From NCBI RefSeq assembly GCF_002902845.1, contig NZ_PPTF01000065.1:26419-32000 (forward strand): a stretch of DNA of 5,582 nucleotides. The letters run 5' to 3'. Each line of letters opens with the position of its first letter. Position 1 is the first letter of the stretch. The position numbers were made by a program, and so were the translations under genes. This document shows, piece by piece, positions 1-5,582 of the stretch. The notes below the pieces were generated by a model that saw nothing but the letters and a program-made list of their open reading frames with translations, made no database searches and was not told the origin of the DNA. Source of the stretch: Chromobacterium sinusclupearum (lineage in GTDB: Bacteria; Pseudomonadota; Gammaproteobacteria; Burkholderiales; Chromobacteriaceae).

Positions 1-277
1 CCAGAATCGGCTGGCGGAGCAAAAAGAGCATGTGGAACTGATGCTGGCCAAGCTGCGCCATATCGGCCGCAAAATGGAGCTGGCGCGCCGCGCCTATGCC
101 GGCGAGGAAATAGGCGAAGACGGCGCTGCCGGCTGGACCAAGGAAATGATAGAAGCGCGCCGCGCCCTGAAACATGCGCTGCTGCTGCGCGATTATGCCG
201 ACGCCGAAGAGCAGCGCCGCATCGCCGCCATTCTGCAACGCGCCACCGCCGAAATCACCGGCCAGACCAAATCCTAA
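1..277 (+). CDS. 3' fragment of an unidentified protein (91 codons visible, codon phase starts at nt 2). Helical and charge-rich; possibly the C-terminal part of a small regulator, but no diagnostic motif is present.
   Basis: The frame beginning at nt 2 (CAG AAT CGG CTG ...) is open from the window edge to TAA at 275-277. The ORF track starts it at GTG 32 only because the window begins here. Third-position G/C bias looks like the neighbouring genes. The stop lies 10 nt before the next ATG, and AAGGAG (276-281) overlaps the stop, which implies one operon with the SIP gene. PadR-type regulators often precede SIP genes, but I cannot recognise that domain in this tail. Confidence 0.55.
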   Translation, partial: QNRLAEQKEHVELMLAKLRHIGRKMELARRAYAGEEIGEDGAAGWTKEMIEARRALKHALLLRDYADAEEQRRIAAILQRATAEITGQTKS

Positions 278-287
278 GGAGCGCCGC

Positions 288-1082
288 ATGACTCAAGACC
301 TGACGATACAAAAACTACGCCACGCCACCCGCTTCCGCCTGCTGCAAGTCAGCCGGGTAACGCGGCTGACGCCAGCCATGCTGCGGATCACGCTGAGCGG
401 CGACGATCTGGAAGGCTTTGTCTCCGCCTCCTTCGACGACCATATCAAACTGTTCTTCCCCGCCCCCGGCGAAGCCAAACCGGCTACGCCCAGCATGGGC
501 GAGGGCGGCATGAGCTTCCCCGCGGATAGACCCAAGCCGGTCATGCGCGACTACACGCCGCGCCGTTACGATGCGGCCAAGGGCGAACTGGATATCGATT
601 TTGTGGTGCACGCCGGCGGCGTCGCCGCGCAGTGGGCCGTGAACGCCAAGCCTGGCGACTATCTGGGCATAGGCGGCCCGCGCGGCTCCCGCGTGGTGCC
701 GACCGGCTTTGACTGGCACTGGCTGATAGGCGACGAATCGGCGCTGCCGGCGATCGCCCGGAGGCTGGAAACATTGCCGGCCGGCGCCCGCGGGCAAGCG
801 TGGATATTGGTGGACGACGAGGATGGCCGACTGCCGCTTGCCGCGCCGGCCGGCGTCGAAATCGTTTGGCGCTACCGCAAGCGCGGGCAGGACCTGCTGC
901 AAGCCATTGAGCAAACCGCCCTGCCCGCCGGCGAAGGCTATGTCTGGGCTGCGGGGGAAAGCGGCGAAATGCGCCCGCTGCACAAGCACCTGCTGGCGCA
1001 AGGGCTGGATAAGGAGCGGATGCGCGTGGCTGGCTACTGGAAGCGCGGCGACGCTGGAGCGCATGAGAGCATTTCGGACTAG
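288..1082 (+). CDS. Siderophore-interacting protein (SIP/ViuB family), FAD-dependent ferric-siderophore reductase
   Basis: 264 aa from ATG 288, in the same frame as track ORF 174..1082. AAGGAG lies at 276-281, 6 nt upstream of the ATG. The family-typical FAD-binding motif R-D-Y-T-P-R-R-Y is present (MRDYTPRRYD). The NAD(P)H-domain start reads WLIGDESALPAIARRLE, and the C-terminal motif reads VWAAGESGEMRPL...VAGYWKRG. Length and order match the FAD_binding_9 + SIP two-domain architecture. Confidence 0.9.
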   Translation: MTQDLTIQKLRHATRFRLLQVSRVTRLTPAMLRITLSGDDLEGFVSASFDDHIKLFFPAPGEAKPATPSMGEGGMSFPADRPKPVMRDYTPRRYDAAKGELDIDFVVHAGGVAAQWAVNAKPGDYLGIGGPRGSRVVPTGFDWHWLIGDESALPAIARRLETLPAGARGQAWILVDDEDGRLPLAAPAGVEIVWRYRKRGQDLLQAIEQTALPAGEGYVWAAGESGEMRPLHKHLLAQGLDKERMRVAGYWKRGDAGAHESISD

Positions 1083-1138: not shown

Positions 1139-2110
1139 CTATGGCGTCAGGGCGGTCCGGAAAAAAGCGACCAACGAAGCATTCAAATCATGATGAAAGG
1201 CCGTTCGGTCAAAACCTGGCGCGTCTTGGCAGATTTCCGGTTCCTCCTTGACCAGCGCCTCCGCGCATGGCGCAAGGAAGGCAAAGTGGCCCGCGTTTTG
1301 TACTACTTTGTAATCGCGCAAGGTTGGCAGCAGTTTATGCAGCTTGGCCTCCGTGTCCGGTTCTACTCCATCACCGCCCTTCTCCGAAATCCACAGGAAC
1401 ACGGGAATTTTGATGCCTGCAAGATTGGCGGCATTCGGAAAAGCATTCAGCGGATCAAGCGCTGCGGCAGCCTTGACCCTATCGTCGCGCACCCATTGGC
1501 GGGTACCCCTGGCCTCTTGCTCAAGCTGTCGGCACAGCGGACGATCGATCTTGCAGCGCACTTCCGAGCCGGCAAAATCTGGCTCGCCGCCCGCAATGAC
1601 CAAGGACGTAAAGCCTCCGCGCGAGAAACCCATGACGCCGATCCTGGAGGAATCGATTTGCGAGGCTTCGGTCGCTTCACCCAGCATATAGTCAATCACC
1701 CTTTTGATCTCGATTGGCCGTCTTTCAAAAGCCAACATGTCCCAAGGGTACTTCATACTCATCCCGCTATCCCCGGTGTGATTGAGGGACACCACTAGGA
1801 ACCCGTTATCAGCCAAAGCTTCCGCGCTGTCATGATGGCCGTACATGCTGCCGGTAAAACCGTGAGAAATCACGATCAGGGGCAGCTTATCGACATCCAA
1901 AGGACAATTGCGACTGGCGCTCACCATGAAGGCTGCGACCTGGCTGCTCTCCGGTTGCTTTGAACACGGAGACCAAATCGCGGCTTTCAATGCCGGAATC
2001 GTTTTGGTAGCTGGAATATCAACCAGCCGCAAGCCCGCAGCCAGCGTAAAGGAAGCGCAGCAGGCGAAAAGCATGCCTATCGCAACATGCATGATTTTAG
2101 TCAAACGCAT
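1139..2110 (-). CDS. Secreted or lipid-anchored alpha/beta-fold serine hydrolase (COG4188 / dienelactone-hydrolase-like, PAF-acetylhydrolase-like fold)
   Basis: 323 aa from ATG at 2110-2108, with GGAG 7 nt upstream on the minus strand (GGAGACAGACT ATG). The N-terminus MRLTKIMHVAIGMLFACCASFTLAAG is a signal peptide, with either an AxA-like site (TLA/A) or a weak lipobox (LFAC). An oxyanion-region motif reads PLIVISHGFTGS. The nucleophile elbow is G-F-S-R-G-G (Ser codon at 1622-1624), and a His candidate lies in NAGHFAF. The conserved C-terminal EICQDAPGFDRTAFH resembles COG4188 proteins. Confidence 0.85.
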   Translation of the reverse strand: MRLTKIMHVAIGMLFACCASFTLAAGLRLVDIPATKTIPALKAAIWSPCSKQPESSQVAAFMVSASRNCPLDVDKLPLIVISHGFTGSMYGHHDSAEALADNGFLVVSLNHTGDSGMSMKYPWDMLAFERRPIEIKRVIDYMLGEATEASQIDSSRIGVMGFSRGGFTSLVIAGGEPDFAGSEVRCKIDRPLCRQLEQEARGTRQWVRDDRVKAAAALDPLNAFPNAANLAGIKIPVFLWISEKGGDGVEPDTEAKLHKLLPTLRDYKVVQNAGHFAFLAPCAEALVKEEPEICQDAPGFDRTAFHHDLNASLVAFFRTALTP

Positions 2111-2169
2111 AGTCTGTCTCCACAAGCAGAAATCCGCATCCTACCCGAAATGCGTTTGACATTACGAAC

Positions 2170-3045
2170 TCATTCCACCTCGCGCAGCAATTGCGTCAAC
2201 AGCGGCGACAGATAGCGCCGCTGCACGGTAATGGCATAAAACGTTTCTTCTACCTCAGGCACCAGGCAATACTGCTGCAGCAAACCTTTCTCCAGTTCGT
2301 CGCGCACCACGATGGCGGGCAGCAGCGCCACGCCGCCCGCGTCGCGCGCCAGCAGACGCAGCATGGCCATGTCGTCCACTTCCGCCCGGATTTGCGGCTT
2401 CCAACCCATTTCCTCGCACAGCAGGTCGAAGCGCAGACGGATCTCGCTCTTGCGGCTGGGCACCAGCAAGGGCAGGCGCGTCAGATCGCGCTCGATATGG
2501 AAATCCTGTCCCGCGTCCAGCGGCGGCCCCACCAGCACCACCGGCTGGCGCGCCAGGGTGCGGCAGCGCCAGGCCTGTTTGTCATCGGCCAGCACCGGCC
2601 GATTCGACAGCACCACGTCGAGCTCATGCGCCTTCAGCCTGGCTAGCAGCTCCTCCAGGCTGCCCGCTTCCAACATCAGCCGCACCTGCTGCTGGCGCAG
2701 CACCGGCTGCAAAAACCAATCCTGGAAATTGCGCGACAAGGTCGCCACGCTGCCGATGCGCAGCGTGCCACCGCGGCCTTCGCTGGATGCCGCGCTGGCC
2801 AGTAGCTCGTTGCCCAGGGCGAAAATCTCCTCGGCGTAACGCATCACCACCGCGCCCAGTTCGGTCAATTGCAGCTTGCGGCCCTCGCGCAGGAACAACG
2901 GTTGGCCCAGCTGTTCTTCCAGCTGACGGATTTGCGCGGACAACGCCGATTGCGAAACATGCAAGCGCTCGGCAGCCCGGGTGAGGTGCCCCTCGCTGGC
3001 AACCGACCAGAAATAATACAGATGGTGATAGTTGAGTCGGCTCAT
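2170..3045 (-). CDS. LysR-family transcriptional regulator, NhaR-like subfamily
   Basis: 291 aa. The N-terminal wHTH MSRLNYHHLYYFWSVASEGHLTRAAERLHVSQSALSAQIRQLEEQLGQPLFLREGRKLQLTELG is close to the distinctive E. coli NhaR N-terminus (INYNHLYYFWHV...GAAEAL...ITGQIRALEERL). The rest has LysR substrate-domain length and layout, including the NhaR-like C-terminal element EETFYAITVQRR. It is divergent from the dabBA operon. Confidence 0.93.
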   Translation of the reverse strand: MSRLNYHHLYYFWSVASEGHLTRAAERLHVSQSALSAQIRQLEEQLGQPLFLREGRKLQLTELGAVVMRYAEEIFALGNELLASAASSEGRGGTLRIGSVATLSRNFQDWFLQPVLRQQQVRLMLEAGSLEELLARLKAHELDVVLSNRPVLADDKQAWRCRTLARQPVVLVGPPLDAGQDFHIERDLTRLPLLVPSRKSEIRLRFDLLCEEMGWKPQIRAEVDDMAMLRLLARDAGGVALLPAIVVRDELEKGLLQQYCLVPEVEETFYAITVQRRYLSPLLTQLLREVE

Positions 3046-3141
3046 TGTTCTTTATTAAAGAATGAAAACTAATATTTAATCTATTTTACTGAACATATCG
3101 ATTAGGGCAAAGTGCCGGCATGCTTTAGACGGAGCCTCTCT
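3046..3141. promoter_or_regulatory. Divergent promoter/operator region between the LysR gene and dabB
   Basis: Nt 3046-3110 are extremely AT-rich for this window (about 15 G/C in 65 nt by hand count). An imperfect dyad spans 3054-3080, with perfect arms ATTAAA (3054-3059) and TTTAAT (3075-3080) separated by 15 nt; this is a candidate LTTR site. A candidate sigma70 promoter for the LysR gene lies on the minus strand: -35 TTGCCC (3110-3105), 16-nt spacer, -10 TAAAAT (3088-3083). I found no convincing -35/-10 pair for dabB, which is consistent with activator dependence. The dabB RBS is GGAG at 3131-3134, 7 nt before ATG 3142. Confidence 0.5.
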
Positions 3142-4641
3142 ATGCCCTTTTCCCTCTCCGACGCCCTGCCCGTCGCCATCGTGCTGGCCTGGTTGTTGCC
3201 AGCCTGCTGGCCAGGCCCTGCCCTGCGCACGCATTGGCGGGCGGCTGAAGCGGCCGCCCTCTTCGGCGGCTTGTTGCTGTTGCCCTTAGCTTGGTTTACT
3301 CCATCTGCGCCCTGGTTCGCCGCTGCCTGGCTGATGCAGGCGCTGGTTCAGCTATTGGGCTGGATGGTGCTGCGCTATTCACGCCGCTACATGCAAGGCG
3401 AGCCCGGCCAGCACCGTTTCCTGCGCGCGCTGGGATGCCTGCTGGCTTCCGTCACGCTGGTCGTGCAAGGCACCCATCTTTTGCTGATGCTGGCGGCGTG
3501 GATAGTGTGCAGCCTGGCGCTGCAAACGCTGCTGACTTTCTACCCCGGCCGGCCTGCCGCCCAACTGGCGGCGCGGCGAGAGCGGCGCACCAGCCGGCTG
3601 GCGGAGCTGCTGCTGATCGCCGGCGGGCTCGCCTGGTCCTGCGCCGGCCGCAGCCTGGACCTGACGGCAGCCGCAACGGCGCCGGTCTCCATCGAAAACC
3701 ACGGCTATGCCATGCTGGCTGCGGTGTTGCTTGTGGCTGCGGTGGGCATCAAGACCGCTCAGTTGCCCTTCCATGGCTGGCTGACCCAGGTAATGGAAGC
3801 GCCCACACCGATTTCCGCCCTCTTGCATGCCGGCGTGGTGAATCTGGGCGGCATCGTGCTGATCAAGGCTGCGCCTTTGCTGCAAACCGCGCCTGCCGCC
3901 AATGCGCTGCTGATGCTGTGGGGCGGTCTGAGCGCGACAGTGTGCTGCCTGGTGATGCTGACCCGCATCAGCGTCAAGCTGCGGCTGGCCTGGTCCACCT
4001 GCGCCCAGATGGGTTTCATGTTGCTGGAAATCGGCATGGGCCTGTATTCGCTGGCGCTGCTGCACTTGCTGGCCCACTCGCTGTATAAGGCGCATGCCTT
4101 TCTCAGCGCGGGCAATGCCGTACGTGACAGCGCCGCGCGGCGTCTGGCCGGCGGCGACGAAGCCGACAGCCTGCCCGCGCACCTTGCGCGCGGCGCGCTG
4201 GCCGTGCTGGCGCTGGCCGTTTCGCAATGGCTGTGGCAACGCTGGCTGCCGGCTGCCGCCCTGCCGCCTCTATTCTGGCTATGCATGGGGCTGGGCATGG
4301 GCGTGTTGCTGCGCGGCCCGTCAGGCCTGTTGGCGACGCTGGCGCTGTGCCAATCCTATCTGCTGCTGCATGCGCTGGCGACCCAGGCGCTGCCGTGGCA
4401 TGGCCAGCCGCCCGCAGCGTGGAGCCAATGGCTGCTCGGCGCGATTTTCGCCGCGGCCTTTCTGCTGCAGGGAGTGTTGCTGCGCCACCCGCAAGGCTGG
4501 CTGGCGCGCCGGCTCTATCCGCATGCCTTCGCCGGTTTTCATCTGGATGAATGGTGGTGCATGCTCGCCTGGCACCAGCCCCGGATCCAGACTCCGATCC
4601 CATCCTGGCAACTGTCGCTGAAAGGAGGCCGTCATGACTAA
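3142..4641 (+). CDS. dabB: DabB: NuoL/NdhF/MnhA-like proton-conducting membrane subunit (Proton_antipo_M family) of a DAB/MpsAB-type inorganic-carbon pump
   Basis: 499 aa from ATG 3142. The protein is polytopic and hydrophobic throughout. The hallmark antiporter-subunit block [42 protein letters not shown] (nt 3751-3828 cover K..H) matches the NuoL consensus [44 protein letters not shown] matches NuoL HAFFKALLFL. No other complex I or Mrp subunits are nearby. A DUF2309 gene follows immediately and overlaps it, which defines DabB rather than a respiratory subunit. Confidence 0.88.
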   Translation: [499 protein letters not shown]

Positions 4642-5582
4642 GCTCGCCGCACCATGGCAGCAGGCCGTGGAACAGGCCTTATCCGCCATTGCCCCGTCCT
4701 GGCCCTTGGACAGCCTGGTGGCCAGCTCGCCTTACTGGGGCTTGCGGGATCGCTCCTTCAAGCAGGCGGCCGATACCCTGCTTCACGTGGCCAACAGCCC
4801 GCTGCACCTGCCGCAAAGCGAATACCTGGCCGCCTGGCGCAGCGGCGAAATCACGCGCGATGCCTTGCAGGCCGCGCTGAACGAGACCGGCTGGACCGAT
4901 TCGCTGGAAGCCTGGCTGGAACGGGCGCGCCAGTCTTTCGCGCCCCCTGCCGCGCCTGTCCTTCTTACCGAACTCTGCGCCGTCCCTGCCGGCCCGATGA
5001 GCGCCCAGCGCTGGACCGATGTCGTCATTCAGCAGATCAGCCAGTATTGCGCCGCCTGGTTCGATCGCGACCAGGCCAACTGGCACTTGTCGCATGAGCA
5101 AGGGTTTTACGCCGCCTGGCGGGAGCAGATGCGCCATCCCTACGGTTTGACCGCATCGCCGCAGATGCGTGAGCGTTTGCGACAGCTCGCGATGCGTCTG
5201 CCTGCCGATGCCGAGTCCATGCTGGCGTCCGGCATCGCCCAGTTGCAGCCGGACGCCGACTGGGCTGCGCCATGGCTGCAAGCGCTGTTGATGCGCAACA
5301 ATGGCTGGGCCGGCTGGTGCGCCTACCTCGCCTGGCAAGCCCATCTGACGGGCGAAAGCGATAGGCACTTGCAAGAACTATTGGCCATCCAGCTGGCCTG
5401 GGAGTGCCTGCTGGATGATGGCCGGCGCGACGCGGACAGCGCTTGGGCGTCTTGGCGCCATGCGTGGCAACATCATGGCGACTGCCGTGCCAACCCGTTT
5501 GCCGCAGTCTGGCAGCGCGCGCATGAGCTGTCCCTGCACTTGCCGCTGACGCAGGCGCTGTGCCGCCCCTCGCCGGCGCAAA
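4634..5582 (+). CDS. dabA: DabA (DUF2309/UPF0753 family, MpsB-like): N-terminal 316 codons, 3' end beyond the window
   Basis: Hand translation of the frame starting at ATG 4634 shows no stop up to nt 5582. That is why the frame is missing from the ORF track. An in-frame TGA lies at 4619-4621 just upstream, so 4634 is the first possible ATG. AAAGGAGG at 4621-4628 lies 5 nt upstream. The N-terminus MTKLAAPWQQAVEQALSAIAPSWPLDSLVASSPYWGLRDRSFKQAA fits the UPF0753 opening pattern (I-A-P-x-W/G-P-[LI]-x-x-[FV]-[IV]-A-x-N/S-P-x-x-G-L...F) as I recall it from YbcC/MpsB. NNGWAGW also resembles a family motif. Position directly after the NuoL-like gene supports the call. Confidence 0.85.
   Translation, partial: MTKLAAPWQQAVEQALSAIAPSWPLDSLVASSPYWGLRDRSFKQAADTLLHVANSPLHLPQSEYLAAWRSGEITRDALQAALNETGWTDSLEAWLERARQSFAPPAAPVLLTELCAVPAGPMSAQRWTDVVIQQISQYCAAWFDRDQANWHLSHEQGFYAAWREQMRHPYGLTASPQMRERLRQLAMRLPADAESMLASGIAQLQPDADWAAPWLQALLMRNNGWAGWCAYLAWQAHLTGESDRHLQELLAIQLAWECLLDDGRRDADSAWASWRHAWQHHGDCRANPFAAVWQRAHELSLHLPLTQALCRPSPAQ

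Follow-up and report, generated by a model that had tools for sequence, protein, structure and literature searches.

The locus analysed here, a stretch of 5,582 nt from Chromobacterium sinusclupearum (contig NZ_PPTF01000065.1, positions 26,419 to 32,000; hereafter the window), raises the question of what a dabB-dabA gene pair, the core of an inorganic-carbon pump of the DAB family, does in a heterotrophic bacterium. The gene map was drawn from a six-frame listing of open reading frames (ORFs) together with Pfam and NCBIfam scans (Table 1). A first-pass annotation of the sequence had recognised the two-gene DAB signature, in which a NuoL-like membrane subunit is followed by a DUF2309 protein, and had predicted PF00361 in the first ORF and PF10070 in the second. 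Both domains were found where expected (E = 2.7e-33 and 3.1e-54, respectively), the first ORF also matches PF00662, and the signature is further borne out by a PDB match and by an 8-nt overlap of the two genes. We consider it highly probable that the window carries a LysR-controlled dabB-dabA operon encoding a DAB2-type, energy-coupled "vectorial carbonic anhydrase" that would supply bicarbonate to heterotrophic metabolism.

When GTDB genomes were scanned with the DabA fragment, thirteen loci were obtained; a further homologue search with the fragment gave a single hit. The best of the thirteen, from Chromobacterium amazonense DSM 26508 (L001), aligns collinearly along the entire window with 93.6% nucleotide identity, and a Logan contig (L104) shows 93.9% nucleotide identity to the window. 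The window DabB is 100% identical to POA98080.1 of C. sinusclupearum. Its best match in the PDB is DabB2 of Halothiobacillus neapolitanus (9rd0_B; E = 5.9e-52, 180 bits), whereas all NuoL/ND5 chains of complex I score 121 bits or less. In the alignment to 9rd0_B, Lys235, Arg182, Ile151 and Asp185 of DabB2 correspond to K204, R152, I121 and E155, respectively, and Ile121 stands at the position of NuoL Glu144, as it does in DabB2. Because a GGAG (3131-3134) and the ATG at 3142 are both kept in 12 aligned loci, the latter was taken as the start of dabB, and GTG 3112 was ruled out as an alternative start.

The protein carries conflicting names in the databases. It scores 508 bits against NCBIfam NF006029 (cutoff 380), and NCBI (through this model and PGAP) calls it "NADH-quinone oxidoreductase subunit L". 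In UniProt, the same sequence is entered as "Probable inorganic carbon transporter subunit DabB". With no complex I genes next to dabB, the NCBI name misleads: no other nuo gene adjoins it among the ORFs of the window or in the neighbourhoods of L001 and L104. That name, together with the fact that PF00361 is common to NuoL proteins, would suit an ordinary complex I paralogue paired with a DUF2309 gene by accident. However, the missing nuo neighbours and the difference in bit scores to DabB2 and to NuoL/ND5 chains speak against a paralogue of this kind, and the dabB-dabA pairing is conserved across loci and even fused in one of them, so we regard it as exceedingly improbable. The same holds for the idea that the pair is a decaying remnant, since neither ORF is disrupted and purifying selection acts on both. 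The fusion is found in a metagenome-assembled genome (MAG) of Steroidobacteraceae (L013 8276-12403), where dabB and dabA form a single ORF of 1375 aa and the divergent LysR gene is retained; dabB-dabA fusions have been reported for other taxa.

The dabA ORF is open to the end of the window (316 codons) and covers positions 1-278 of the 747 of the PF10070 profile. It overlaps dabB by 8 nt (ATGACTAA), and an AGGAGG lies at 4623-4628, five bases before its ATG. The overlap with a good Shine-Dalgarno sequence suggests that the two genes may be co-translated in a 1:1 ratio. As the first-pass annotation had anticipated, the window stops short of the zinc ligands: the visible DabA ends at residue 316, and Cys328 is the first ligand of the C. 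sinusclupearum protein POA98081.1 (P0400, 792 aa), which is identical to the window DabA over 316 of 316 visible residues. This full-length protein has no frameshift or early stop, the ortholog of L001 covers PF10070 completely (1-747), and dabA is also intact in the 94%-identical relatives, so the truncation that would have spoken against the first-pass annotation is not seen. The expected Cys/Asp/His/Cys zinc site is likewise kept. In POA98081.1 the site, which resembles that of beta-carbonic anhydrases, consists of C328, D330, R332, H488 and C503 and is also present in L001 and L104; Cys328, Asp330, Arg332, Ser333, His488 and Cys503 correspond to C351, D353, R355, S356, H524 and C539 of DabA2, respectively. 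Motifs specific to DAB proteins are present as well, namely the lid GFAGFFG (351-357), NNPQAAALQCGACGG (494-508) and DWAETRPEWAL (615-625), the last being the DWxxxRPEWxL motif with its conserved Leu. In addition, E415 corresponds to the conserved Glu of the membrane-inserted finger. No NCBIfam model matches DabA; NCBI names it "DUF2309/YbcC family" and UniProt "Probable inorganic carbon transporter subunit DabA".

Experimental work on DAB2 gives these residues a meaning. The zinc-site residues C351, D353, H524 and C539 of DabA2 are needed for the rescue of Escherichia coli lacking carbonic anhydrase, and cryo-electron microscopy structures show the coordination of zinc by the DabA ligands. 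According to mutagenesis of DAB2, the Asp-Arg dyad and Glu444 are required, the Glu of the membrane-inserted finger being essential. The ratios of nonsynonymous to synonymous substitution rates (dN/dS, Nei-Gojobori method) against L001 and L002 are 0.20-0.26 for dabB and 0.11-0.27 for the N-terminal part of dabA; they are similar to those of neighbouring genes and indicate purifying selection on both.

The label "MpsAB-type" given to the pair at first holds for the gene order, with the membrane subunit first, but the sequence and the composition are those of DAB2. In a comparison with every sequence of the PDB, DabA of C. amazonense (L001) has a sole match, DabA2 of H. neapolitanus (9rd0_A; residues 12-790 against 21-824, E = 1.9e-150). 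The DAB1 subtype is not indicated: DabC is lacking, and the motif reads NNPQAAALQCGACGG rather than the strictly conserved NNPYESALDCGACGG. No intervening dabC gene is possible because dabB and dabA overlap, and the gene following dabA in the relatives encodes a cytoplasmic DUF6671 protein, not DabC. Based on the lack of DabC, the DabA2-style substitutions in the NNPxxxAL.CGACGG motif and the best solved match, the Chromobacterium pair is by sequence and subunit composition of the DAB2 type, with the gene order B then A.

Like DAB2 of H. neapolitanus (DabA2/DabB2, PDB 9rd0), the pair has two subunits and no DabC, with DabA proteins (792 versus 827 aa) that align from end to end. The zinc ligands, the Asp-Arg dyad, the finger Glu, the GFAGFFG lid and the NNP..CGACGG and DW..RPEW.L motifs are kept, as are the Lys/acidic ion pair of DabB and the Ile at the position of NuoL Glu144. 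In contrast to DAB2, the order of the genes is reversed (B then A, with the 8-nt overlap), DabB is shorter (499 versus 551 aa), Asp185 is replaced by Glu, a conservative change, and LDCGAC by LQCGAC. The host is a heterotroph, and the pair, which has no carboxysome context, is accompanied by a divergent LysR gene and, in the relatives, by DUF6671 on its downstream side.

MpsAB of Staphylococcus aureus and NdhF-YbcC(MpsB) of Bacillus subtilis share with the Chromobacterium pair the NuoL-like gene in first place, the heterotrophic host and a proposed supply of bicarbonate for growth at atmospheric CO2, a function interchangeable with that of carbonic anhydrase. However, these are Firmicutes proteins, likened to ours by gene order and role and not by sequence; MpsAB has been proposed to be Na+-coupled, and the Firmicutes operons carry mpsC or canC instead of LysR and DUF6671 genes. 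Tcr_0853/0854 of Hydrogenovibrio (Thiomicrospira) crunogenus also shows the membrane-subunit-first order, together with co-transcription and a role at low dissolved inorganic carbon (DIC), but it forms part of an autotroph's CO2-concentrating mechanism (CCM), and its DabA has been described as nearer to DabA1. The cyanobacterial NDH-1MS/CupA complex resembles the pair in coupling a proton channel of the NuoL/NdhF type to directional CO2 hydration, but differs in being redox-driven, in its unrelated Cup protein and in its thylakoid location.

Chromobacterium is known as a chemoorganotroph, and the 10 kb to each side in L001 and L104 hold no RuBisCO, carboxysome or cbb gene, in agreement with the first-pass annotation, which had seen no carbon-fixation gene in the window. 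Both facts argue against the pair being the uptake arm of a CCM that serves autotrophic fixation encoded elsewhere in the genome. It is true that DABs were discovered as CCM components and mostly co-occur with Form I RuBisCO, but many genomes bearing DabA, those of pathogens included, lack RuBisCO, and bicarbonate for biotin carboxylases was the role suggested for them; a CCM function is thus very unlikely here. The supply of bicarbonate by DAB/MpsAB homologues has been tested experimentally in two heterotrophs, S. aureus and B. subtilis; S. aureus needs its MpsAB to grow in air, and MpsAB and carbonic anhydrase can stand in for each other. Bicarbonate supply rather than a CCM, as put forward at first, is therefore the best-supported reading of the physiological role, which would be as follows.

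DabB, a NuoL-like channel, would pass protons down the proton-motive force. DabA would sit on the cytoplasmic face of DabB, with a helical hairpin bearing the conserved Glu inserted into it, and its deeply buried Cys2-His-Zn site would, with the Asp-Arg dyad, carry out the hydration of CO2 entering the cell by diffusion. We infer from the conserved residues that this activity and its coupling to protons are retained in Chromobacterium, in which case hydration would run in one direction only and the product would be trapped as bicarbonate. At low ambient CO2, this bicarbonate could feed the carboxylation of acetyl-CoA, pyruvate or phosphoenolpyruvate, and the synthesis of carbamoyl phosphate, as well as the reactions of PurK and TsaC/Sua5.

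The iron reductase, the hydrolase and the LysR gene had all been described as flanks. Their identities stand, but the LysR gene belongs to the dab module, as its conserved divergent synteny indicates. By tblastn synteny and gene-context look-ups, the arrangement LysR<>dabB-dabA extends through Betaproteobacteria and further; it occurs in all Chromobacterium and Pseudogulbenkiania loci, in Noviherbaspirillum (beside an isc operon), in Polaromonas (beside a SpoU methylase gene), in a Pseudomonadota MAG, in the Steroidobacteraceae MAG and in three metagenome loci (L030, L042 and L079), so that the module is found in differing chromosomal neighbourhoods depending on the taxon. The regulator shows 57-63% identity across taxa versus 42-46% for DabA and DabB, and dN/dS of lysR is 0.08. 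The spacer between lysR and dabB is constant at 95-98 bp in the Chromobacteriaceae, Noviherbaspirillum and Polaromonas loci (96 bp in the window). Conservation above that of the pump, the varied neighbourhoods, the constant spacer and a conserved dyad lead us to propose that LysR is a dedicated, conserved part of the dab module and not a mere flank. No paper connecting DAB with a regulator of the LysR or NhaR-like kind came up in a literature search.

Across the 12 aligned loci, the spacer has four conserved blocks, namely GTTCT-N7-AGAA, TATTTTAC, GGCAAAGT and the ribosome binding site of dabB. The GTTCT-N7-AGAA dyad abuts the lysR start codon and is a perfect palindrome with 7-nt arms; it occurs once in the window and in none of 200 shuffles. 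Of the 16 fetched loci with a match, 15 carry it as one site beside the lysR start; 88 loci have no match. A consensus scan found a candidate lysR promoter on the minus strand, TTGCCC-16-TAAAAT (9 of 12 matches), made up of both conserved blocks; by inspection of the same two blocks, TTTACT-17-CAAAGT on the plus strand may serve as a weak dab promoter. With this plus-strand reading, the centre of the dyad would fall at about -65 relative to the transcription start predicted for dab, inside the lysR leader, which is where the recognition site classically lies for a LysR-type transcriptional regulator (LTTR). The predicted starts are at about 3120 for dab and, on the minus strand, at about 3076 for lysR. 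The locus thus has the features of a classical divergent LTTR operon, with a divergent regulator and a T-N11-A dyad overlapping the regulator leader, the promoter positions being taken from consensus matches. The divergent LysR protein would bind the GTTCT-N7-AGAA dyad, probably repressing its own promoter and activating the weak dab promoter in response to a signal. An inverted repeat between 3104-3112 and the dabB start codon was also considered as a translational hairpin and rejected, since it lacks conservation beyond the genus Chromobacterium and has its upstream arm ahead of the predicted transcription start.

The nature of the regulator bears on a further alternative. Its best NCBIfam model is NhaR (NF008284), the E. 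coli LysR-type activator of nhaA, which is the best-scoring characterised LTTR model and matches over the full length of the protein. However, the score of 141.7 bits is below the family cutoff of 219, and the genomic partner is dabBA instead of nhaA; by this measure the window regulator is not an NhaR equivalog. No close relative was found among solved structures. A regulator of this clade could be taken to sense Na+ or alkaline pH, and the pair could then be an MpsAB-like Na+/HCO3- symporter, or a system for cation translocation, membrane potential or Na+/pH homeostasis, with no CO2 hydration in either case. The mpsA-mpsB-like gene order, the proposal that MpsAB is a Na+/bicarbonate cotransporter, the NhaR match and the JGI/KO label of the clade, "activator of nhaA", all fit such a system. 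Nevertheless, a pure transporter would have no need of the full zinc site and the DAB coupling motifs, and DAB2, the closest solved relative, neither requires Na+ nor rescues an nhaAB mutant. Moreover, Na+ control fits poorly with the occurrence of the same regulator clade and operator before an operon of isocitrate dehydrogenase and DUF6671 genes in two metagenome loci (L064 and L073), and the NhaR model is matched below its cutoff. We regard this alternative as unlikely.

Some points weigh against the reading as a DAB2-type pump for bicarbonate supply. The catalytic half of DabA lies beyond the window and was judged from a database protein with an identical N-terminus and from the 94%-identical relatives. 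Asp185 of DabB2 is replaced by Glu in the window DabB, and the Asp preceding the second zinc cysteine (LDCGAC) is replaced by Gln (LQCGAC). Finally, the nearest characterised relative of the regulator is the Na+-responsive NhaR, which is equally compatible with cation homeostasis.

Beyond the window, dabA is followed in L001 and L104 by a gene for a 271-aa DUF6671 protein (PF20376), the ATG of which overlaps the dabA stop codon by 11 nt, an overlap by which the two genes would be translationally coupled. A sua5/tsaC gene starts 14 nt after the DUF6671 gene in both loci, and purL is convergent. DUF6671 genes are also located behind dabA in Polaromonas and in a Nitrospirae MAG, the latter with the order dabB-dabA-DUF6671-ilvD-sua5. 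TsaC/Sua5 makes threonylcarbamoyl-AMP from bicarbonate, and its proximity may reflect a functional link or just conserved core-genome synteny with purL and ilvD. Apart from the Chromobacterium loci, sua5 is near DUF6671 in the Nitrospirae MAG and in seven metagenome loci. In Polaromonas-like loci (L021 807-1963; L078 and L079), dabB-dabA-DUF6671 converges on a pair of genes of the chromate-transporter family (PF02417).

The context of DUF6671 was sampled in 80 metagenome loci with tblastn counts, and 70 of these have more than 1 kb of upstream sequence. A DIC transporter gene is present in 31 of the 80 loci, DabA in 18 and an SbtA-like transporter (PF05982) in 13. DUF6671 comes immediately after the transporter gene, on the same strand, in 25 loci (13 dabA and 12 SbtA-like), and the usual arrangement is LTTR<>transporter-DUF6671. 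An isocitrate dehydrogenase gene takes the place of the transporter in five loci, including the two mentioned above with the window-type regulator and operator; further DUF6671 genes have unrelated neighbours. This association is suggestive of a role for DUF6671 in inorganic-carbon acquisition or its regulation, but it is a lead and not a finding because the sampled loci are phylogenetically non-independent and the sampling favours relatives of the Chromobacterium protein.

The DUF6671 family comprises 1,974 clusters at 50% identity (E<=1e-3), all of them stand-alone proteins of about 270-300 aa. Invariant polar residues are numerous in these proteins, and the modelled domain is followed by four CxxC pairs. 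The AlphaFold model is confident, with a pLDDT of 92.5, and its best Foldseek matches are NTP pyrophosphatases of the ITPase/Ham1/Maf type, which are weak (E = 3.5e-3, TM 0.29/0.41). Relaxed Pfam scans of DUF6671 gave zinc-ribbon noise only, no NCBIfam model matched it, and the literature search found no paper on it. We tentatively suggest, as a possibility on which we would not yet insist, that dabBA forms the centre of a larger inorganic-carbon module not yet described, which consists of the NhaR-like LysR with its operator, the pump and DUF6671, the last being an accessory or regulatory component common to DAB and SbtA-like transporters. DUF6671 might act as an SbtB-like nucleotide-sensing partner, or as an enzyme that makes or removes the effector of the regulator.

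As the first-pass annotation had stated, the family itself is known: UniProt names both proteins as DabA and DabB, and the role in heterotrophs has been proposed and tested in other bacteria. The dabBA pair is accordingly an uncharacterised member of a well-known, already annotated family, for which the bicarbonate-supply reading in a heterotroph is not new, and taken alone it matters little, as one more heterotrophic DAB carrier in a soil and water genus of opportunistic pathogens. By contrast, no description appears to exist of two accompanying parts, the dedicated LysR regulator, whose operator is conserved, and DUF6671 as a recurrent partner. Through the conserved LysR and its recognisable operator, the signal that switches on DAB pumps in non-autotrophs could be approached, and DUF6671, with about 2,000 clusters, can be named as a specific candidate for an accessory or regulatory factor still missing from the picture of how bacteria acquire inorganic carbon. 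Because DAB pumps are being engineered into Cupriavidus and considered for plants, their native regulators and helpers are of practical interest.

Table 1. Features of the window, and of the genes behind dabA in related loci (positions in window coordinates unless a locus is named)
Feature	Position	Strand	Basis or remark
PadR-family regulator gene, 3' end	1..277 (ORF 32-277)		synteny with L104, where it is 199 aa
Siderophore-interacting (SIP/FAD_binding_9) FAD reductase	288..1082	+	PF08021 + PF04954
Alpha/beta-hydrolase, hydrophobic N-terminus	1139..2125	-	
LysR-type transcriptional regulator, 291 aa, NhaR-like clade	2170..3045	-	PF00126 + PF03466
LysR-box dyad GTTCTTTATTAAAGAA, T-N11-A type	3047..3062		proposed recognition site of the LysR regulator
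Promoter core, two conserved blocks	3082..3113		TATTTTAC 3082-3089, GGCAAAGT 3106-3113
dabB, predicted stand-alone NuoL-like proton-conducting membrane subunit, 499 aa	3142..4641	+	PF00361, PF00662, NF006029
dabA, codons 1-316 of 792 (N-terminal domain and start of beta-carbonic-anhydrase-like domain II)	4634..>5582	+	PF10070
DUF6671 gene	L001 12369-13184; L104 5229-6044; L010 3274-4158; L021 1989-2852; L024-L103		
sua5/tsaC gene	L001 13199-14155; L104 4258-5214; L010 6122-7117; L042-L046, L051, L054		

The remaining genes of the window were compared with the related loci as well. An Rfam search of the window found no RNA family, the sole match being a chance miRNA (E = 0.56). The SIP reductase gene starts 10 nt after the PadR-family gene, and with this short distance the two probably form an operon unrelated to the dab genes. 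The gene for the hydrolase, a predicted secreted protein, has a G+C content of 0.53-0.58 versus 0.63-0.69 elsewhere, the profile being low over 1000-2250, and its synonymous substitution rate against C. amazonense is 0.09, while that of its neighbours is about 0.22. In the loci fetched from Chromobacterium species at a greater distance (L002-L008), neither the hydrolase nor the SIP gene has a match. The hydrolase segment was possibly acquired or exchanged recently.

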